Source: a virus. Taken from it: a stretch of DNA of 64,000 bases. Positions 4,459 through 21,586 of the stretch are shown here, piece after piece. How positions within the stretch are numbered: the stretch's first letter is position 1; each line of letters starts with the position of its first letter. The notes under the pieces are model-generated. The model was not told the DNA's origin and did no database searches. It saw only the letters and a list, made by a program, of their open reading frames with translations. Both the position numbers and the translations under genes were made by a program. The stretch is from positions 1 through 64,000 of IMG/VR virus record IMGVR_UViG_3300025118_000006; one strand, written 5' to 3'.

Positions 4459-4487
4459 ACACTGCCAAAAAACCTACTTTTGGTCAA
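4459..4487 (-). promoter_or_regulatory. sigma70-like promoter for the candidate sRNA
   Basis: TTGACC-17-CAGTGT with extended TG, the same layout as TTGACA-17-CAGTTT at 8986. Confidence 0.5.
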
Positions 4488-5091: not shown

Positions 5092-5164
5092 TACGCTAAC
5101 CGATAATCGCGCCGCGTCAAAAAAAATCAATGTGTTGACAATGCCACCGCCCCGGATGTAATTT
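5092..5164. promoter_or_regulatory. divergent sigma70-like promoters
   Basis: Minus: TTGACG(5120)-17-TAGCGT; plus: TTGACA(5135)..TGTAAT/TAATTT; A-tract between them. Confidence 0.55.
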
Positions 5165-5170
5165 AACGTC

Positions 5171-5470
5171 ATGATTATAGTTATTTTAATATTGCTTGGT
5201 GCGCGAGCCTATCGCGCTGAAAATGTTGGCTTGGGCACACTCTTTGAGCGCATGGCTTCAATCTGTGCGGTCATCGCTCTTGTAGGCATACTTTACACTG
5301 GCGTGTACTACTCGTCTGCGACTGTAGACCACGCGAGCGCGGAAGCGCGTGTGGAGCTACTGAAAGGCCAGCCACCAGAGGTTTCGCAAGACGCGGTCGG
5401 TGAATCCGCTGCTGCAATTGAAAGGAAGAGGCTATCGGTACGGTGGCTCATCTTTTTTGTCGTAATTTAG
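5171..5470 (+). CDS. small membrane protein, possibly from a leaderless mRNA
   Basis: Hydrophobic segments; ATG directly after the -10 element. Confidence 0.5.
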   Translation: MIIVILILLGARAYRAENVGLGTLFERMASICAVIALVGILYTGVYYSSATVDHASAEARVELLKGQPPEVSQDAVGESAAAIERKRLSVRWLIFFVVI

Positions 5471-6286: not shown

Positions 6287-6364
6287 CCAGTGCACCCGTT
6301 CGCAACCACTTGACAATACTAGGGAAACGTGGTAAGCTCCAGTTAAACCAATTGGAGTTTGTCT

Positions 6365-6613
6365 ATGGTAGATCGCAAGAAAATCCGAGGACGGTGGTAC
6401 TCCATCGTCGAAGACGTGCCCAAGGCGGGTGACTACGTCTTCTACTATGACCGAGGCTGGCGCGGAGGCTTCATTGACCGGGTCCACAACGGACGCAAGC
6501 ACAGGTACGTAGTGATAGCCCCGATGAAGCTAAAGATCGGCAGGAAGAACCACGTAATTCGACCAAAGAAAAAAGTCGAACTGCGTGCAATCAGAGAAAT
6601 CTGCCGCCGATGA
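6365..6613 (+). CDS. small basic hypothetical protein
   Basis: TTGACA..TAAGCT promoter from 6310 and TTGGAG SD. Confidence 0.55.
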   Translation: MVDRKKIRGRWYSIVEDVPKAGDYVFYYDRGWRGGFIDRVHNGRKHRYVVIAPMKLKIGRKNHVIRPKKKVELRAIREICRR

Positions 6614-6667
6614 CAGTGGCGCAGTAAGTCTTTCGCAACTTTTTTTCAGAAAAGTGTTAGCAAGGAG

Positions 6668-6736
6668 TTGACAACACCACCAGCCGTATGCTCTAAATCG
6701 TATGGTGACGTTAATAACTTATTTGGAGAACAGAAA
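6668..6736 (+). promoter_or_regulatory. early promoter plus conserved leader A (GTGACGTTA...TTGGAGA)
   Basis: TTGACA 6668, GTGACGTTAA 6705, TTGGAGA 6723, ATG 6737. Confidence 0.75.
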
Positions 6737-7198
6737 ATGACTGAGACTTTCACATTCAAAATCGCAGAAACGAAACTCAACCCCCACTCGAAACAGCAGC
6801 GCGAAGCCGATGTGTATTGCGAGCTTTGCGGGCGCGGCATTTGGCAACGAAACAACGCGCACGTCGTGTTGACTGGAGACGAATCGAGGGAAGAGCGTCT
6901 AAGAAGCGGCAGTGTGACCCTGGAGAAGTTCGATAAAAGCCTACTCGGCACTGACTCTGCTGAATGGGGCATCTTCGTTGGGTCGCGCTGCGCGAAGCAA
7001 ATCCCTCGCGAGTTCAAGGTGTCGCAAAAGGTTGTCATGAAGCACGTCTTCGATGCCGCAAGGCGTCAAGCGACGGCATCGAAGGAAGAGCGTGATCAGT
7101 TGGATAGCGATTGGAACGAACGCTTTCTGGCTGGAGCAACCGCTGAGGAAAGAGCCGAGTGGAATCAAGTTCTCGCACTCGCTAAGGAGGTGTCCTAA
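6737..7198 (+). CDS. early hypothetical protein (CxxC ... C)
   Basis: Start reassigned to the ATG after the SD. Confidence 0.7.
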   Translation: MTETFTFKIAETKLNPHSKQQREADVYCELCGRGIWQRNNAHVVLTGDESREERLRSGSVTLEKFDKSLLGTDSAEWGIFVGSRCAKQIPREFKVSQKVVMKHVFDAARRQATASKEERDQLDSDWNERFLAGATAEERAEWNQVLALAKEVS

Positions 7199-8985: not shown

Positions 8986-9048
8986 TTGACAACGCCACCT
9001 TCTTATGGCAGTTTTGTGAACGTGACGTTAATTGATTGGAGATTAAAG
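8986..9048 (+). promoter_or_regulatory. early promoter plus conserved leader B
   Basis: TTGACA 8986, GTGACGTTAA 9022, TTGGAGA 9036, ATG 9049. Confidence 0.75.
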
Positions 9049-9318
9049 ATGACTAAGCGAAAAGCAAAATTGATTGAAGACGCTCGGGCCGCTGGCTTTG
9101 AGGTCAACGAGGGCACGCAAGGCGAGTGGCATTTCGAGCGATGGAGCAAACACAAGAAGTCTCGCTACGGCAACGGTGGCCCGCGACTTCTTGCCGGGAT
9201 GACTCTTTACGAGTATCCCGGCACTGCGATCTCAAAGATGTGCGACCTTGTCGATGCCATTGGCATTCAGAGTTATGCACAGATGCGTTCAGTGCTGGGC
9301 TTGGGCAAGGAGGTTTAA
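9049..9318 (+). CDS. early hypothetical protein
   Basis: ATG after the leader SD. Confidence 0.65.
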   Translation: MTKRKAKLIEDARAAGFEVNEGTQGEWHFERWSKHKKSRYGNGGPRLLAGMTLYEYPGTAISKMCDLVDAIGIQSYAQMRSVLGLGKEV

Positions 9319-9319
9319 G

Positions 9320-9592
9320 ATGACTATCGAAATAGAAACATACATCTTGGATGCAGACCGTGAAGAGTTGGAGGTCGTCGTTGAGGTGACCAAGTACAGC
9401 TACGACGGTGGCTACGCTGGCTACACTTACGGGCCTCCGGGGCAGTGCTATCAGGGAGAAGGCGCGACTGCTGAACTCGAAGAGTATGTCATTCGAGATG
9501 CTAACACGAGCAAGGTTATCGCATTGGAGCTTCAAGAAGAGGACCGTGCTTCTATCGAAGAGCGGATTTGTGAGATTGAGGCCGAGCGATGA
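9320..9592 (+). CDS. acidic hypothetical protein
   Basis: AAGGAGG SD; YGPPGQCY..E segment. Confidence 0.65.
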   Translation: MTIEIETYILDADREELEVVVEVTKYSYDGGYAGYTYGPPGQCYQGEGATAELEEYVIRDANTSKVIALELQEEDRASIEERICEIEAER

Positions 9593-9873
9593 AACCCTGT
9601 GCCTACGACCCTGCGAATGTCGAGCATTTGATTGCTGACCTTTCGACGAAGAGGGAGTGCTCAGTTTGCCACTCTCTCTTCGAGCCGGGGGAGCACTACA
9701 AGCGCGTGACCTGGGATAATGTAGCCGGTGTGGTGGTGAGCTTTTACCACTGGATCGGTTGCAGCGAGAAGGCCGAGTCTTCGGGTGAAGATTGGCTTCA
9801 TGAGAATTGTTCAGGCGACCCGAAGAACATTGAGGCCGCCGTTGATTTTGTTAAGAAATTGCAAGGAGATTAG
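9589..9873 (+). CDS. hypothetical zinc-binding protein
   Basis: CxxC...HxxxC; coupled ORF. Confidence 0.6.
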   Translation: MKPCAYDPANVEHLIADLSTKRECSVCHSLFEPGEHYKRVTWDNVAGVVVSFYHWIGCSEKAESSGEDWLHENCSGDPKNIEAAVDFVKKLQGD

Positions 9874-10310
9874 TGATGATTAAGAAGTTTACAGACGAAG
9901 AAATTAACGCAGTTGAAGAGTTGTCACTGAAGATGTCGGCTGCTGCACGAAGCCTGAACGAAGAGATAAAGGCGTTCAATCGGGTGATTGCGAATCGATA
10001 CGTTGAAGTTGAGCTTGAGCGTGAAAAGTACGAGAAGCTTGTAGTTGAGTCGCGCAACCTCCTCGCGAATCTTTGGGGTCGAGTTTTTCACACGGTTCGG
10101 GAGGCAACAGAGTTGAATGGTCCGAAGTGGATGCGAACCGACGAAGGCCAGAACCTCACGTACTGGATGGACCTGCTGAATCACCACTTTGAGGTTGAGG
10201 AATTGGAAGTCCACACGCCGGGTGTTTTTCCAGAGATGCAGCCGCAAGAAGACCTCTCGCACAACCTTGACGTGCCGATGTCGCTTGAGGAACTCGCAAA
10301 CAGGTTTTAG
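9873..10310 (+). CDS. hypothetical coiled-coil protein
   Basis: AGGAG SD; W..T.EGQ....W motif. Confidence 0.65.
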   Translation: MMIKKFTDEEINAVEELSLKMSAAARSLNEEIKAFNRVIANRYVEVELEREKYEKLVVESRNLLANLWGRVFHTVREATELNGPKWMRTDEGQNLTYWMDLLNHHFEVEELEVHTPGVFPEMQPQEDLSHNLDVPMSLEELANRF

Positions 10311-10311
10311 T

Positions 10312-10340
10312 TTGACGCCAGCGACCGGCTGGCTTATCTA
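10312..10340 (+). promoter_or_regulatory. sigma70-like promoter
   Basis: TTGACG-17-TATCTA immediately after the stop codon. Confidence 0.55.
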
Positions 10341-10345
10341 ACGTG

Positions 10346-10438
10346 TACTTCGCTGGGTCAACCGTTGCGGGGTACCGAAGGGGTCTGCGCGGGTTCTCCA
10401 ATCTAAGAACGTCACAACCGCGCAGGCCCTCTTTTTTT
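10346..10438 (+). ncRNA. candidate sRNA / attenuator RNA (sRNA-E) antisense to early-operon leaders
   Basis: 13-bp stem 10380-10392/10418-10430 plus T7; 10395-10415 is the reverse complement of leader B at 18 of 21 nt. Confidence 0.65.
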
Positions 10439-10455
10439 CAGGGAAGGACACACAC

Positions 10456-11844
10456 ATGGACCCAAAAGCGTTTCCAAATTCGCTACAGGCTGAGCAGGCG
10501 ATTTTAGGCACAGTATTATTAGACCCTCAAACATACATTCTCATTGGTGAGAAGATATCCCCAGACGATTTTTTCAAGACCGCACACGGTGTCATTTGGC
10601 AGGCCGTCAAGAAGGTAGTGAAGGACGGTCGGAATCCAGACGCTACCGAGGTTATCGACCGGCTAACCCTCGCACATGAACTCGATGTTGTCGGTGGTGC
10701 GACATACGTGATGGAACTACTTGACCATACGTGCGTGCCAGTCATCGCTGAACAATATGTAGACATAATCAAAGCGCATTCGCTTCGTAGACAATTAATC
10801 CTAAACGCACACAAAATTGCGAAGGCTGCTAGGACCGAAGAGGCCCCGGACTCCGTTGCGGCAACCGCGATCCAATCGCTCTTGACGACCGTCGAGGACC
10901 GGGATGAGCCCGAGGCCAGACCAGCCGCCGACATCGTTACCGAGCGCCTCGCTAAAACGAAGGAAGCATTGGAACGAGAAGAGAGCAGCATCGGAATTCC
11001 TAGCGGTTACGATAAGTTAGACGAACTCACTCTTGGATTTCACGGTGGAAACTACATTGTAGTGGCGGCTCGACCGGGAATGGGAAAAAGCGCGTTCGCC
11101 CTAAGCCTATCGCTTAACGCAACACGAAAAGATAGATCTGTCGCATTCGTGTCCCTTGAGATGTCCGAAGAGCAGATGGCAGACCGGCTCATGGCGATGG
11201 AGTCGGGTGTGTCTATGCAGAACATTAGGCGAGGGGATATCAGCGAATACGATGTTGGTAGACTTGAGAAGGGCGCTAGGAATATCCAGCCTCTCCCGCT
11301 GTACATCTCAGTCCAGACCAGAATCAATATCGATGGGCTTAGGATGTTCGCTCGTCGAATGAAAATGCGTAACCAATGTGACATGCTTATCATCGACTAC
11401 CTCCAGCTAGTAATGCCCAGGAAAGGCTTTGGCAATCGAGAACAGGCGGTAGCTGATATGAGCCGGACCATCAAGGCTATCGCTCTTGAGCTAGACATCC
11501 CCATCATCGCGCTGGCTCAACTTAATCGTCAGGTTGACGGGAGGGCTAGTAAGCGGCCTATACTCTCGGACCTGCGAGAGTCTGGCTCAATCGAGCAGGA
11601 TGCTGACGCCGTTATGTTCCTGTATCGAGATGAGGTCTACGACCCGAATACTCAGGACAAAGGGAAGGCTGAAGTTATTGTAGCAAAGCAGCGCAATGGC
11701 CCAACCGGAATCGTCACACTTGACTTCGATGCTGAACGTAACATTTTTAAGAACGAGAATCCTTACATTCCAAATCATTCCTATTCACACACTACTACTA
11801 CCCAGGCCCAAGTTTGGGCCAATCGCTATGGAGATGACAGATGA
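10456..11844 (+). CDS. dnaB: replicative DNA helicase DnaB
   Basis: AEQAILG N-domain, AARPGMGKS Walker A, SLEMS, IIDYLQL, LAQLNR, DLRESGSIEQDAD, KQRNGPTG. Confidence 0.97.
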   Translation: MDPKAFPNSLQAEQAILGTVLLDPQTYILIGEKISPDDFFKTAHGVIWQAVKKVVKDGRNPDATEVIDRLTLAHELDVVGGATYVMELLDHTCVPVIAEQYVDIIKAHSLRRQLILNAHKIAKAARTEEAPDSVAATAIQSLLTTVEDRDEPEARPAADIVTERLAKTKEALEREESSIGIPSGYDKLDELTLGFHGGNYIVVAARPGMGKSAFALSLSLNATRKDRSVAFVSLEMSEEQMADRLMAMESGVSMQNIRRGDISEYDVGRLEKGARNIQPLPLYISVQTRINIDGLRMFARRMKMRNQCDMLIIDYLQLVMPRKGFGNREQAVADMSRTIKAIALELDIPIIALAQLNRQVDGRASKRPILSDLRESGSIEQDADAVMFLYRDEVYDPNTQDKGKAEVIVAKQRNGPTGIVTLDFDAERNIFKNENPYIPNHSYSHTTTTQAQVWANRYGDDR

Positions 11845-12320
11845 CCCAGCCAATTGACCTTTCACCAAGACCCCAGCTTTCACCAGAAGAGGCCGCAGTC
11901 GTAAACGCAGCCCAACAGCTTGTTCCTATCTACCAAAAAATGGCCGAAGCGGGACTCGTTGACGGTGAAATAACACTGAACGCCATCGTGCTTACAGCTA
12001 CCCGAATCGGTATCGACACGATGATAAACCACGCTATTTCGCAGGGTTACATGGAAGACCCTCGCGTTGCCGCAGCCGCCGAAAGCGCAAGCAAAGAGGG
12101 CTACATGGGTGACCTTGAACGGCGCGATACCGAGGCCGCCAACCAGACCGAAGAGGAAGAGGCCATTGCCGAAGCCGATGCCGATGAGCTTATGGAAATG
12201 GACAGCGATGCCGTTGAGGAGGCCGCCAAAGACCTGTGCCCACCGACTGACCTTGCAGAGCTTCCAGAGCCCTCCGAGGCACTTTCACAACCGCTTGACA
12301 ACGTGGCAGAGCAAGCGTAG
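11841..12320 (+). CDS. acidic hypothetical protein
   Basis: ATGA coupling to dnaB; GGAG SD. Confidence 0.65.
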   Translation: MTQPIDLSPRPQLSPEEAAVVNAAQQLVPIYQKMAEAGLVDGEITLNAIVLTATRIGIDTMINHAISQGYMEDPRVAAAAESASKEGYMGDLERRDTEAANQTEEEEAIAEADADELMEMDSDAVEEAAKDLCPPTDLAELPEPSEALSQPLDNVAEQA

Positions 12321-12390
12321 AAACGAGTGATGGGCGGTATGCGTGGGAAGGGACGCGCCGCCCATCACTACAAGCTAAATGAGGTAAGCC
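12295..12390 (+). promoter_or_regulatory. promoter and structured 5' UTR of the initiator gene
   Basis: TTGACA-17-TAGAAA; hairpin 12326-12369 with loop GGGAAGGG; SD TGAGGT at 12380. Confidence 0.65.
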
Positions 12391-13476
12391 ATGACCAGCG
12401 AAAAGGTATGTGTTTTTCGGCCCTGGAGAGCGTTTCAGGGGGCACACATCCCGATGGTCATCCTAACTGCTAACGACCTAAGCCCAGGCGCAAAGTTGCT
12501 ATGGGCGTTACTAGCTAAATATGCCGGGGAGAACGGTGCAGCGTACCCCAAGCAGCGCAAACTAGCCGAAGACATGGCCGTGAACATCAAAACCCTACGC
12601 AAGAGGCTCGAAGAGCTAACCAGCAAGGGCTACATAGTTCAAAGTAGAGACAGGGGTGACCGACGGGCACACAAGCCGTTTAATTATCAGTTCATCTGGA
12701 GAGACGAGTTTGAACCCGGACTTTTAAGGCCGTTGTCGGCATTGCGCCGGGTTGAAGTGGAGGTCCATAGGGATGGTACTCCACTCGAAGTCCACAAGGG
12801 TGGCACTCCAGAAGAAAACCCCACGGGTGGACCTCCAATCGAGAGCCCCACGGGTGGTACTCCTATCGAGTACCATACGGGTGGTACTCCAGAGCAGAAT
12901 GAGTTGCCTGAAATCGAGGCCCTCGAAAACCATACGGGTGGACCTGCGGATGTCCATACGGGTGGTTCTCGAATTAATAGGAGTCAAGAGATTCAATTAA
13001 GAGAATTAGAACAAAACCCCCTAACCCCCTTGCAGGGGGAACCTTCGGCTGAAGATGATTGGCCGGGTTTTCCATTTGAAGAGATACGCGAAGCGTACAA
13101 CTCTGTAGCGAAGGTCGAGGGGTGGGTCGTGATGCGTAAGCGCGAGCGTCCACCCAGGGGTAAGCGTGAGCATAAAGTCATCCGAGAGTTGCGTGCCCAG
13201 TGGAAACGCCACAAATCCTCTGTATGCGAGGTTTTGGATGTTTCGGGTACAGAATGGTTCGAGAGGTACTTTCAGGCGTGTAGAGGCTATGTTACGTGGG
13301 ATTGGAGGCCACATCTTGAGTATTGGGCGAGGCTAGATACAGAGGAGGCTATTTTGGACCGCAAGAATAGTGTCTCCCAATTTCCTTCTTCTTCTGGTAG
13401 ACTGGGGGCAGCTTATCAATCGCTTATGAACGCTGCCGACCGAGTAACTGAGATGCAGGAGAGTGAAAATGGCTAA
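12391..13476 (+). CDS. phage replication initiator (N-terminal wHTH, internal iterons)
   Basis: LSPGAKLLWALL....AYPKQRKLAEDM..N.KTLRKRLEEL..KGYI; central repeats; NPLTPLQGE linker. Confidence 0.8.
   Translation: MTSEKVCVFRPWRAFQGAHIPMVILTANDLSPGAKLLWALLAKYAGENGAAYPKQRKLAEDMAVNIKTLRKRLEELTSKGYIVQSRDRGDRRAHKPFNYQFIWRDEFEPGLLRPLSALRRVEVEVHRDGTPLEVHKGGTPEENPTGGPPIESPTGGTPIEYHTGGTPEQNELPEIEALENHTGGPADVHTGGSRINRSQEIQLRELEQNPLTPLQGEPSAEDDWPGFPFEEIREAYNSVAKVEGWVVMRKRERPPRGKREHKVIRELRAQWKRHKSSVCEVLDVSGTEWFERYFQACRGYVTWDWRPHLEYWARLDTEEAILDRKNSVSQFPSSSGRLGAAYQSLMNAADRVTEMQESENG
12757..12968 (+). repeat. about seven iteron-like repeats (27-nt period, core CMYACGGGTGG), probable replication origin
   Basis: Repeats read directly from the sequence, followed by an AT-rich stretch at 12970-13017. 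Confidence 0.75.
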
Positions 13477-17651: not shown

Positions 17652-18119
17652 TTATTTCTGGCAATTCAGCAGCTTGGTGTTGCCGTAAATGTCACGAATG
17701 ACCGTGAACGGTGAGGTGTTTGGCTCATCAGGAACGGCCTCAATAAGGGCAGTCTTCACGTAGGTTTCTTCGCCTGTCTCGGCGCAGAAAATCTTTGTCA
17801 GGCCGCCGGTCTTGTTTCCGTAGCCAAGTTGAGCAGCGGTGCGAGCGCGGAGCACGGTGTAGGTCCGGTCGCGATGAAGCATAACCGACACCGACCTTGG
17901 CGCGAGCCGTGTCTCGCCAGCACTGTTCAGTCCATGCGAGCGGGGGCTGTCGTACCAAGCGTTACGCTCGTCTTGCGTAATAGGTCGGCTGGAATGAACT
18001 GTTCCGTCCATGTCGTTGCCATAGGTTTCGAGGGGATACTCAAGCTCGCCACCCTCTTTGTTGGTGAAGCACTTGGCTACGTTTAATCGAACGATGGTAT
18101 TTTTGAGAATCTTAGTCAT
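17652..18119 (-). CDS. early hypothetical protein
   Basis: Start reassigned to the ATG after leader C. Confidence 0.7.
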   Translation of the reverse strand: MTKILKNTIVRLNVAKCFTNKEGGELEYPLETYGNDMDGTVHSSRPITQDERNAWYDSPRSHGLNSAGETRLAPRSVSVMLHRDRTYTVLRARTAAQLGYGNKTGGLTKIFCAETGEETYVKTALIEAVPDEPNTSPFTVIRDIYGNTKLLNCQK

Positions 18120-18190
18120 TTTCTGTCTCCAATCAAGATTTGCTAACGTCACATTCAGGATTATAGGCATAGCCCTGGGGGCACGGTCAA
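18120..18190 (-). promoter_or_regulatory. early promoter plus conserved leader C
   Basis: TTGACC 18190, TATAAT 18165, GTGACGTTA 18152, GATTGGAGA SD. Confidence 0.75.
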
Positions 18191-18198
18191 GTACTTTA

Positions 18199-18725: not shown

Positions 18726-18907
18726 TACTTAACCTCCACTGGCTCGGCTACGGCTTTGCCAAGCGTCCATACACCGCCCATCGACTCGACCATCTCGTAT
18801 AGTGAGCGGTGGAACTTGTAGCGGCAATCATCAACGCTATTCGCGATGTACGTTACGTTTTCTTCGCCACTGTTGACGGGCGCAAGGTCTGTGATTCTAA
18901 CTTTCAT
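18725..18907 (-). CDS. early hypothetical protein (60 aa)
   Basis: Start reassigned to the ATG after leader D. Confidence 0.6.
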   Translation of the reverse strand: MKVRITDLAPVNSGEENVTYIANSVDDCRYKFHRSLYEMVESMGGVWTLGKAVAEPVEVK

Positions 18908-18970
18908 TTTTTTCTCCAAATAAATTAACGTCACCCGATAAGTTATAAGCCCTACCAAGCCTGTAGTCAA
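18908..18970 (-). promoter_or_regulatory. early promoter plus conserved leader D
   Basis: TTGACT-17-TATAAC, GTGACGTTAA 18934, TTGGAGA SD. Confidence 0.8.
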
Positions 18971-18999
18971 GCACTTTACTACAAGTTTGTGAAAAAAAG

Positions 19000-19414: not shown

Positions 19415-19481
19415 AAAGGTGTCCTCTCGATAAAATAGTAGTAGTTACGCCAAATTTACAGCCCGTGGGGAAGATTGTCAA

Positions 19482-21143
19482 GTGGTTGCGAACGAACACA
19501 GTGATATGGCCGCCAACATACTAGCTACGACAGCAGGTCGCAGGCGAATGTCTACGGCCTCTTTAATATACTTTGACACATACTATTGCGGCATGGCCTA
19601 CGCGGAACACAGGCAGAGGTGGTTGGACATTCTAGCGACCGCATATCGCAAGGGTCAGTCATCACGGGATGACCAGTCTTTACTGCTTCTGGCCCCTCGA
19701 AAGCATGGAAAGACTGAGCTTGCAGTTACATTCACGCTCTGGCTTATCTGCATGAACCGGAACATTCGTGTGCTTTGGATTGGTTCCAAAGCTGACTTGG
19801 CGAAGAAGCGTTTGGCGAGGTGTAAGGCCCTGCTAGAGAGCGCAAGAGTCCAGAATGACTGGTGCGGTGAGCCTGAAACCGGGTTCGGGCCTTGGCGTGG
19901 GGATTCTGGCGATGTTGAGTGGGACAAGAGCCGTATCCGAATCACGCGCAGCGCGGCACTTATTGACCCAACGATTGAAGCAGTCGGTATGCGTGGCGCA
20001 ATCACAGGTGGTCACTTCGATGTTATTATTCTGGATGACGTGGAGGACGAGAATTCGGTGCGCTCGGGTAGCGTGCGCGAGCACACGAGAGAGTGGTTCG
20101 AGGGAACGCTTACACCGATGTTAAATCAGGGTGGGCTCATGCTTTGCATTGGTACCCGAAAGCATTTCGACGATCTTTACGGTCGTTTGGATGAAAATCC
20201 CATGTGGCAAATCATCACCGACAAAGCCATTATGCAATGGCCTGATAAGTATGAGCCGACGTACGAGGAAATCGACGGCAAGGATATATTCACAGGCGTT
20301 TCGGTGGAGGGTGAGGCGAAGGTTTTGTGGCCTGAACAGCGACCGTTCGAGTACATGATTCGTCAGAGAATTAAGATGGGTTCGACGATTTTCGCTCGCG
20401 AGATGCAGAACGAGGTAGTGGATGATGAGACGGCCCAATTCAGGCTTGCTTGGCTGAAAGACGCTATGGCGAACGGGTCGAACTATAGTCTTTACGAGTT
20501 CCCGCCAAACGTGGACATCGTAGACATCGTGCAAGGCTGGGATCTCGCGCTAGTTACAGATCAAAGAAAGGCAGACGAGGGCGATAGGGACTTCACAGTA
20601 GGCGTGACGTGGGGTCGAGATGCGAAGGGAAATCGGTATCTTCTAGGAATGAGGCGGGAGCGAGGTATCACCCCAGGAACATTGCGGAACTCCATCATCA
20701 AAGAGCATGAACGCTTTGCTGGAAAGGTTCGAGCTATTGCTATTGAGAAGAACAGCTTTGGCGAACTCCACTTCCTCGGACTTCAGAAAACCACAGATTT
20801 ACCTCTAAAGGCACACATTACGGGGCGAAACAAAACCGACTCATGGGAAGGCGTACCGTCGATGGCGGCGCTTTTTGAAAACGGCAAGGTTCACTTCCCA
20901 AGCAAGACCCTGCGCGACAAGGAGATCATGAAGGACGTGATCGCGGAATTCCACGGCCTTGGCAGGGAGCGACACGACGACATCGTAATGTCTATGTGGA
21001 TAGCTGAAACCGTGCTACGCAAAGGTGGCTTCCAGTATCGTGCCGCGCAGGGAGACGACCTAATAGAGACGGATATTGTTGGCGCAGACGACTTCTCTCA
21101 TTTCGGTGGCGGGTTCGACGACCTACCCTTCCTTGACGATTGA
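19482..21143 (+). CDS. terL: terminase large subunit
   Basis: Walker A APRKHGKT, ITGGHFDVIILDDVED Walker B, IGTR, nuclease motifs GWDLA and HDDIV. Confidence 0.95.
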   Translation: MVANEHSDMAANILATTAGRRRMSTASLIYFDTYYCGMAYAEHRQRWLDILATAYRKGQSSRDDQSLLLLAPRKHGKTELAVTFTLWLICMNRNIRVLWIGSKADLAKKRLARCKALLESARVQNDWCGEPETGFGPWRGDSGDVEWDKSRIRITRSAALIDPTIEAVGMRGAITGGHFDVIILDDVEDENSVRSGSVREHTREWFEGTLTPMLNQGGLMLCIGTRKHFDDLYGRLDENPMWQIITDKAIMQWPDKYEPTYEEIDGKDIFTGVSVEGEAKVLWPEQRPFEYMIRQRIKMGSTIFAREMQNEVVDDETAQFRLAWLKDAMANGSNYSLYEFPPNVDIVDIVQGWDLALVTDQRKADEGDRDFTVGVTWGRDAKGNRYLLGMRRERGITPGTLRNSIIKEHERFAGKVRAIAIEKNSFGELHFLGLQKTTDLPLKAHITGRNKTDSWEGVPSMAALFENGKVHFPSKTLRDKEIMKDVIAEFHGLGRERHDDIVMSMWIAETVLRKGGFQYRAAQGDDLIETDIVGADDFSHFGGGFDDLPFLDD

Positions 21144-21202
21144 CGTTGACCAGAGTGTGTTTTTAGACATAATTTCATAATAGAATCTCGGAGTAGAAGC
21201 TC

Positions 21203-21586
21203 ATGCCTCAGATGCAAAAAAACAAGAAGTTCACCTTTCAGGCCACTAACGGCCAAGAGAAGGTTTTTAATTTAAATAGACGAAACCTCGGCTTTAACCC
21301 AAGCCAAACCTTCGACCATCACCAGATACAGGTGTACGCGAGCAACACGTCCCACGCTATTGCGACGGACCAGATTTCGCTGACCTTCAAACCTGTTAAT
21401 TCAGATGTCTTTGCTAGTCTGTCTGGCTCCACAACAATGGACAACGGTGACGTTTTTCTCGTTGATGTTGGTCCGTGGGAGGAGATAAAGGTGACCCTGT
21501 CAGCAACGCACGGGTTGGCCACATCGGCTGATAACGTGACAGTCGTGTGCAATTCCTTCGTGGCCTTCGGCGGCATGGGACAATAA
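21203..21586 (+). CDS. hypothetical virion protein
   Basis: Promoter TTGACC..CATAAT, GGAG SD; beta-rich sequence. Confidence 0.6.
   Translation: MPQMQKNKKFTFQATNGQEKVFNLNRRNLGFNPSQTFDHHQIQVYASNTSHAIATDQISLTFKPVNSDVFASLSGSTTMDNGDVFLVDVGPWEEIKVTLSATHGLATSADNVTVVCNSFVAFGGMGQ

Follow-up and report, generated by a model that had tools for sequence, protein, structure and literature searches.

Spacer between operon B and dnaB

The sequence analysed here is a 64-kb window (the whole stretch of DNA examined) of the 78.5-kb IMG/VR record IMGVR_UViG_3300025118_000006, from an uncultured marine phage with a G+C content of 52%. The element under study is a hairpin in the 145-nt spacer between a group of small early genes, operon B, and the dnaB gene; its loop carries an inverted copy of a sequence shared by the leaders of four early operons. 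The early and replication region takes up the first 20 kb; its genes read rightward up to about 15.5 kb, and from about 19.4 kb they read leftward. Operon B extends from an ATG at 9049 to a stop at 10310 on the plus strand and holds four small open reading frames (ORFs), none with a significant match in Pfam or PHROG. All ten early ORFs were searched against these two databases for a repressor, an antiterminator or an RNA-binding protein, with no significant match. The dnaB gene (10456-11844, plus strand) encodes a DnaB-type helicase, judged by its Pfam domains, and is followed by an ORF of 159 amino acids (aa) and then by an HTH_36 initiator gene (O-like) with internal 27-nt iterons. Since the genes flanking the hairpin all point rightward, and the leftward operons end near 15.5 kb, the plus-strand RNA is the one expected at the hairpin. 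No lysogeny genes were seen, and the phage is lytic-looking. The following features were recognised in the spacer, all on the plus strand.

10312-10340, plus strand: candidate weak sigma-70-type promoter, TTGACG at 10312-10317, 17 nt, TATCTA at 10335-10340
10346-10374, plus strand: 5′ hairpin of the intergenic RNA, from the minimum-free-energy (MFE) fold of 10346-10440
10377-10438, plus strand: putative terminator/attenuator, with a 12-bp GC-rich stem, a 4-bp extension, a structured 25-nt loop and T7
10395-10415, plus strand: anti-leader segment UCUCCAAUCUAAGAACGUCAC, complementary to the early-leader box
10442-10458, plus strand: dnaB ribosome-binding site (RBS, GGAAGGA) and start, the ATG at 10456 lying 18 nt past the T-run

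The outer stem is formed by 12 bp between a 5′ arm at 10381-10392 (GGGTCTGCGCGG) and a 3′ arm at 10418-10429 (CCGCGCAGGCCC), comprising ten G-C pairs, one A-U pair and one G-U pair. Past a 1-nt bulge (U) it is extended by four pairs, 10377-10380 with 10431-10434. Inside it, a 5-bp inner stem, GUUCU/AGAAC (10393-10397 with 10406-10410), leaves two unpaired stretches, the apical loop CCAAUCUA (10398-10405) and the 3′ bulge GUCACAA (10411-10417). The T7 run (10432-10438) is found 2 nt past the 12-bp stem. The MFE fold (ViennaRNA) had an energy of -31.3 kcal/mol, with a z-score of -5.4 and none of 200 shuffled sequences equally stable, and the MFE structure made up 30-66% of the ensemble (frequency 0.30-0.66). 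The inner stem, apical loop and bulge are identical to those drawn in the initial annotation, which had also described an RNA of about 92 nt ending in a stem and T7 just before the dnaB RBS. All the elements it described lie at the coordinates it gave; the stem as drawn here has 12 bp and the four further pairs.

When all T-runs on both strands of the window were considered, the hairpin at 10381-10438 ranked first among hairpins followed by a T-run. It begins 67 nt past the stop at 10310 that ends operon B, and it lies on the coding strand. The GC-rich stem, the U-tract and the place of the hairpin, behind the last gene of a transcription unit and on its coding strand, agree with a Rho-independent terminator. 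The loops of such terminators are usually 3-8 nt long. Here the loop has 25 nt and is partly closed by the 5-bp inner stem, and the standard terminator scan missed the hairpin because the loop is not short. The best explanation of these features is a predicted Rho-independent terminator that would close operon B before the replication genes. No TTGAC-type promoter was found between 10438 and 10456, the next evident one being the TTGACA at 12295. With no promoter between the T-run and the dnaB start, dnaB transcripts must read through the hairpin, which would therefore also serve as an attenuator. As for the features of classical attenuators, no competing antiterminator structure was detected and the terminator fold dominates the ensemble; the only ORF that could give an overlapping leader peptide (10343-10507, GTG start) has no Shine-Dalgarno (SD) sequence and runs into dnaB.

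Inverted leader box and its predicted pairing with the early leaders

The early region holds at least seven recognisable sigma-70-like promoters whose -35 element is a near-perfect TTGACA. Four of them (A at 6668 and B at 8986 on the plus strand, C at 18970 and D at 18190 on the minus strand) form duplicated promoter-leader cassettes.

6668-6739, plus strand: cassette A, TTGACA at 6668, box at 6705-6729, ATG at 6737
8986-9051, plus strand: cassette B, TTGACA at 8986-8991, box GTGACGTT..TTGGAGA at 9022-9042, ATG at 9049; heads operon B
18905-18975, minus strand: cassette C, TTGACT at 18970, TATAAC, box at 18934-18913, ATG at 18907
18117-18195, minus strand: cassette D, TTGACC at 18190, TATAAT, box at 18152-18126, ATG at 18119

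The alignment of A-D showed three invariant parts: the -35 element, GTGACGTTA, and the SD block TTGGAGA followed by ATGA. Because GTGACGTTA begins 6-7 nt past the -10 hexamer in all four cassettes, it lies at or beside the transcript start. The spacing between the two leader blocks ranges from 6 to 12 nt across the cassettes. Promoters A and B have poor -10 hexamers (TCTAAA and CAGTTT, respectively).

The reverse complement of 10395-10415, GTGACGTTCTTAGATTGGAGA, matches leader B at 9022-9042, GTGACGTTAATTGATTGGAGA, in 18 of 21 positions and with equal block spacing. Both this inverted match and the invariance of the matching blocks (GTGACGTT and TTGGAGA) in the four leaders had been claimed in the initial annotation and hold here, the latter in the four-cassette alignment. 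In the hairpin, the anti-SD block UCUCCAAUC extends across the inner stem and the apical loop and the anti-5′-end block AACGUCAC across the inner stem and the bulge. The inverted box reaches within 2 nt of each terminator arm. The pattern GTGACGTT-N(6-12)-TTGGAGA occurred five times in the whole 78.5-kb record, namely in the four leaders and in the inverted hairpin copy. Its chance expectation is 0.0008 per window (analytic, composition-based), and the reversed control pattern did not occur in the record at all. An inverted match of 18/21 is by itself not rare, with about two expected in 22 kb by estimate and many similar pairs listed. The match stands out from chance because it covers both family-invariant blocks and not because of its score.

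The differences from leader B are unevenly placed. All 17 block positions are kept, and three of the four spacer positions are changed. All three differences fall within the six family-variable positions, which has a probability of 20/1330 = 0.015 by our own count. The inner stem owes its C-G and U-A pairs to two of them, and in this way the conserved blocks are presented in the loop and the bulge.

On the minus strand the hairpin copy is preceded by no -35 or -10 element and has no start codon behind its SD block. A fifth leftward promoter at this position was therefore rejected, in agreement with the initial annotation. An invertible DNA segment was also considered and rejected, as contigs from four runs showed neither joints nor strand changes, and inversion would put no gene behind promoter B.

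Interaction energies between the loop and the leaders were calculated in the manner of RNAup, by adding the hybrid energy to the energies needed to open the two partners. Opening 10395-10415 costs 2.7 kcal/mol, the inner stem being weak. The net interaction energies were -19.6 kcal/mol for leader B, -17.6 for D, -14.2 for A and -9.9 for C. The exposed seed CCAAUC forms 6 bp with B and D and 4 bp with A and C, and the exposed seed GUCAC pairs over 5 bp with the initial nucleotides in each of the four leaders; the loop thus displays accessible seeds complementary to the translation initiation regions of the targets. The block UCUCCAAUC pairs at nine of nine positions with GAUUGGAGA of leader B, and both are carried by the predicted transcript 9022-10438. 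The block AACGUCAC is complementary to the first eight leader nucleotides.

A duplex scan using the loop with the stem ends returned many GC-driven chance matches, and the 21-nt segment alone was used instead. Among about 32,000 positions on both strands, the four best duplex partners of this segment after its own complement were leaders B, D, A and C. Their duplex energies lay between -25.8 and -20.4, against a background of -7.3 (standard deviation 2.7). The scan shows that the loop has no better target in the window than the four leaders.

The 5′ block is found inverted at one more promoter.

5135-5173, plus strand: promoter E, TTGACA-18-TAATTT, with the inverted 5′ block TTAACGTCA at 5163-5171 and an ATG at 5171

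The A of this ATG lies 7 nt past the -10 element, which implies a leaderless mRNA. The ORF (within 5135-5470, plus strand) encodes 99 aa with a hydrophobic N-terminus. The inverted copy suggests that the 5′ block may be read on DNA in either orientation.

Relatives of the locus were scarce. Megablast against phage records found no close match, and the DnaB relatives in IMG/VR had at most 40% identity. A DnaB search of metagenome contigs retrieved only one contig (L131), which was identical over the whole spacer. A DnaB with 90% identity (P0003) is encoded on a 2969-nt ENA contig. Relatives of the large terminase at about 50% identity included none with the box. Two architecture patterns searched in IMG/VR returned three chance matches without stems and zero matches, respectively, and a loose pattern scan gave chance matches only. 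In contigs of four marine DNA runs the hairpin was unchanged, with the exception of one low-depth insertion. This was a CG inserted after 10404 in a contig of run X7, lengthening the apical loop and spacer and leaving both blocks and the stems intact; it may be a strain variant or an assembly error. Among the listed runs that contain the stretch, none is recorded as RNA. Contigs from two marine runs (X6 and X8) matched only 41 nt of the sequence, 9028-9068, spanning the 3′ half of leader B and the first codons. Beyond this segment, to either side, they diverged, which points to recombination with another phage and a mosaic joint located at the leader cassette. A cmscan of the window against Rfam at the gathering threshold gave no match. 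At E<=10, the interval 10250-10500 had two chance-level matches, to unrelated families only, and the covariance model of the C4 antisense RNA family did not match the hairpin region.

Possible roles of the hairpin

We tentatively favour a terminator/attenuator before dnaB whose anti-leader loop has been selected and may act as an antisense brake on early translation, on its own operon first. Every RNA ending at the hairpin, including the operon-B mRNA with its 3′ end, would display the anti-leader sequence, and the weak 10312 promoter may provide a second source, an RNA of about 92 nt. RNA-RNA pairing would cover the RBS and the 5′ end of early mRNAs. The first target would be leader B of the same operon, through a 5′-3′ interaction in cis or in trans, with leaders D, A and C as weaker targets in trans, and early translation would come under negative feedback or be shut off. 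As leader B is the best match, an interaction within or between operon-B mRNAs would be the most economical mechanism. Moreover, promoter-B transcripts that stop at the hairpin would share the same 3′ end, so that an anti-leader RNA could arise independently of the 10312 promoter. The initial annotation had proposed that one small RNA (sRNA) silences four early operons, that early leaders pair with the hairpin and control read-through into dnaB, or both. The complementarity, the interaction energies and the place of the four leaders as top targets speak for the pairing, whereas the stand-alone sRNA is called into question by its weak promoter.

Several points weigh against an antisense brake. 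Ordinary cofolding keeps the hairpin intact (ddG 0 to -2.6), a result to be read with the fact that cofolding cannot model pairing within a loop. A duplex of 17-18 bp inside a loop closed by a 12-bp stem is topologically strained; pairing would then likely proceed through two short helices, as in c4-type RNAs, or compete with closure of the stem. The freely exposed seeds are just 5-6 nt long, and the complementarity of the apical loop to A and C is 4 bp only. The ranking of the four leaders above all other targets is not independent evidence, as it derives from sequence identity. The case consists of one sequence, the sole other copy retrieved (L131) being identical over the whole spacer, and the phage and viral scans (DnaB, large terminase and the two architecture patterns) found no phage sharing the box. 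Finally, the 5′ block has another inverted copy, at promoter E, and a role as RNA is unlikely there.

The hairpin may instead be a simple terminator that has picked up a passenger, namely a leader cassette that was duplicated long ago in inverted orientation and now lies between the stem arms. It would do no more than terminate operon B and stabilise the 3′ end of that transcript, leaving the anti-leader sequence functionless. The duplication of promoter-leader cassettes around the genome in both orientations, together with the mosaic joints that other strains show at leader B (loose ends 9028/9068), makes such an origin conceivable. However, decay should have eroded the blocks, yet these are intact at 17/17 positions while 3/4 spacer positions have changed. 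The copy is also framed within 2 nt per side by the 12-bp stem, two of its changes build the inner stem, and a simple terminator does not need a 25-nt loop. On balance we regard a functionless relic as somewhat unlikely. Another reading takes GTGACGTT(AA) as an asymmetric DNA site at early transcription starts, bound in either orientation by a regulator of phage or host origin. The dnaB-proximal copy would add one more such site, which might serve, for instance, as a roadblock or co-regulated switch. Phage P1 offers a parallel in its scattered asymmetric C1 operators, one of which controls the dnaB analogue ban. The position of the block 6-7 nt past the -10 hexamer in A-D is what an operator would predict, and four of the six copies of GTGACGTT in the window lie at the four leaders, with a fifth in the hairpin. 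In addition, TGACGTTAA is inverted at promoter E across the predicted start of the leaderless ORF (chance about 1e-3, an estimate). An operator nevertheless leaves unexplained why the SD block GATTGGAGA is kept at 9/9 positions and at the leader B spacing in a copy that has no start codon, and a TTGGAGA 6-12 nt from GTGACGTT has a chance probability of about 4e-4. The spacing of the two blocks, varying from 6 to 12 nt among the leaders, indicates two blocks and not one rigid operator. The only candidate promoter is about 65 nt upstream of the hairpin site. Among the early ORFs no DNA-binding protein could be recognised; an HTH protein is present only in the form of the initiator, and the iterons in its gene are unrelated to the box. 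A DNA operator appears quite improbable as an account of the hairpin copy.

The remaining alternatives keep the pairing with the leaders and change either the source of the RNA or the direction of control. A stand-alone trans-acting sRNA gene of 92 nt with its own promoter at 10312 would be a special case of the antisense brake, and one that we consider unlikely. The TTGACG-17-TATCTA reported initially is present directly past the upstream stop codon, with a predicted RNA start at about 10346-10347 and a length of about 92 nt. The -35 element matches the consensus at five of six positions and is comparable to those of the other TTGAC promoters of the phage, and the RNA would carry a 5′ hairpin and a terminator with a U7 tail. 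The -10 element is weak, TATCTA matching TATAAT at 3/6 positions without the final T, and for this reason the promoter scan did not list the site, although the clear promoters A and B are likewise poor at -10. The site further lacks the upstream flanks that the seven clear promoters have in common in pairs, the first 22 kb hold about 50 instances of TTGAC[N], mostly within genes, and no Rfam family matches. The 5′ hairpin (10346-10374) has no evident target, as genome-wide duplex scans found none at a translation start. The spacer of the 10312 promoter contains a small palindrome, GCCAGC-N5-GCTGGC. With the control reversed, early leader RNA might pair with the nascent loop and keep the arms apart, so that polymerase reads into dnaB. 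The operon-B transcript could itself supply the leader, as its tethered 5′ end, or leaders could act in trans, and the replication genes would be timed by the accumulation of early leaders or by their ribosome-free state. All dnaB transcripts cross the hairpin, leader B (in cis) is the best match, and the complementary segment comes within 2 nt of each arm; because it fills the loop, a complete duplex would be sterically incompatible with stem closure. Against such antitermination, polymerase has just 3-15 nt to transcribe between the end of the loop and the 3′ arm, and unless it pauses this gives an intermolecular or long-range contact well under 1 s to form; neither an alternative antiterminator fold nor a leader peptide is evident. 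Control of read-through by leaders is possible, if speculative, and kinetically demanding, and we judge this antiterminator very unlikely. It is equally hard to credit a combination of both directions, in which the loop would sense free leaders and the terminated RNA would silence those same leaders, giving a protein-free RNA timer that ties early shut-off to the onset of replication.

A second candidate antisense RNA was noted at 4487 to 4364 on the minus strand. It comprises TTGACC-17-CAGTGT, GCUUACCUCA and CCCUUCCC, a 10-bp G/C hairpin and U7, and its terminator is the second strongest in the window. GCUUACCUCA and CCCUUCCC are complements of the RBS of the initiator gene (TGAGGTAAGC) and of the loop GGGAAGGG of a hairpin in its 5′ untranslated region (UTR) (12345-12352 and 12379-12388, plus strand). 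Two such arrangements in one phage would make control at the RNA level somewhat more credible.

Known systems and minor features of the early region

The antisense brake resembles regulation described in two bacterial mRNAs. In the icaR mRNA of Staphylococcus aureus, a UCCCCUG anti-SD motif of the 3′-UTR pairs with the SD of its own 5′-UTR (PMC3868564), and the hbs mRNA of Bacillus subtilis shows a 5′/3′-UTR interaction (PMC5737220). As in these, sequence at the 3′ end of the phage operon-B mRNA is complementary to the SD region at its own 5′ end, leader B being the one carried by the same mRNA. The icaR and hbs interactions can act in cis or in trans and block ribosome loading. Unlike them, the phage motif, known here from sequence alone, lies inside a terminator loop, is accompanied by a second block complementary to the very 5′ end of the mRNA, has four leaders of one family as its matches and precedes replication genes.

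The c4 RNA is a phage counterpart, and the P4 CI and N15 CA RNAs are related to it. In phages P1 and P7, c4 is an antisense RNA that controls ant (Citron & Schuster 1990, as cited in PMC8201110). Both c4 and the phage element present two short exposed blocks to two blocks of an mRNA leader, one of them over the RBS, and in both the RNA can arise from the transcription unit of a target. However, the c4 and CI RNAs are processed immunity factors of temperate phages that act on one operon, whereas the phage element is a terminator hairpin matching four operons and has no sequence or structure match to Rfam models.

Regulatory information placed in hairpin loops, including the loop of an intrinsic terminator, is a further likeness. 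C-rich loops of the RNAIII/RsaE type pair with SD regions, according to a mention in PMC3868564, and sRNA terminator loops drive fepA regulation in Escherichia coli, probably without base pairing in the view of the authors (PMC11979758). The RNAIII loops carry a generic UCCC motif, whereas the phage loop carries a 21-nt image of a private leader. In its position the element can be compared with lambda. Terminators of the lambda tR1 type stand between the first early genes and the replication genes, whose expression depends on read-through. The putative phage terminator is likewise placed between an early operon and replication genes. Unlike tR1, it is accompanied by no N/nut-like or Q-like component that could be identified in the phage, and its loop content has no tR1 counterpart.

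The element is probably best read as a variation on known anti-SD and antisense control (icaR, c4 and loop-seed sRNAs) that belongs to no catalogued RNA family. If this is correct, the 3′ end of one early mRNA would control a whole class of early messages with no dedicated protein, and the control would sit where transcription decides on entering the replication genes. It would extend anti-SD control of the icaR and c4 type to class-wide early shut-off in phages. A search rule for uncultured phages would also follow, namely a terminator loop that mirrors a shared early leader.

Downstream of dnaB, the HTH_36 gene (12391-13476, plus strand) contains six to eight 27-nt tandem repeats at 12758-12974. 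It looks like a lambda O-type replication initiator with the origin iterons within its own gene, and the TTGACA-17-TAGAAA at 12295 may be its promoter.

Some minor features concern promoters and terminator tails. The upstream flanks of promoters A (6637-6652, plus strand) and C (19001-18986, minus strand) have AACTTTTTTTCA in common. The tail of the terminator upstream of dnaB (10429-10441, plus strand) reads CTCTTTTTTTCAG; T7-CA runs are thus a repeated feature of cassette borders, where they may represent tails of terminators or else UP elements. Another promoter pair, F (6294-6317, plus strand) and G (19474-19500, minus strand), shares GTTCGCAACCACTTGACAAT in opposite orientations. Promoter F leads into an ORF of 84 aa (6359-6613), and the leader of this ORF contains the palindrome CCAATTGG. 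Three overlapping TTGAC motifs (TTGACGATTGACGTTGACC) were found at 21133-21151 on the plus strand, after the large terminase gene and upstream of a gene starting at 21203.

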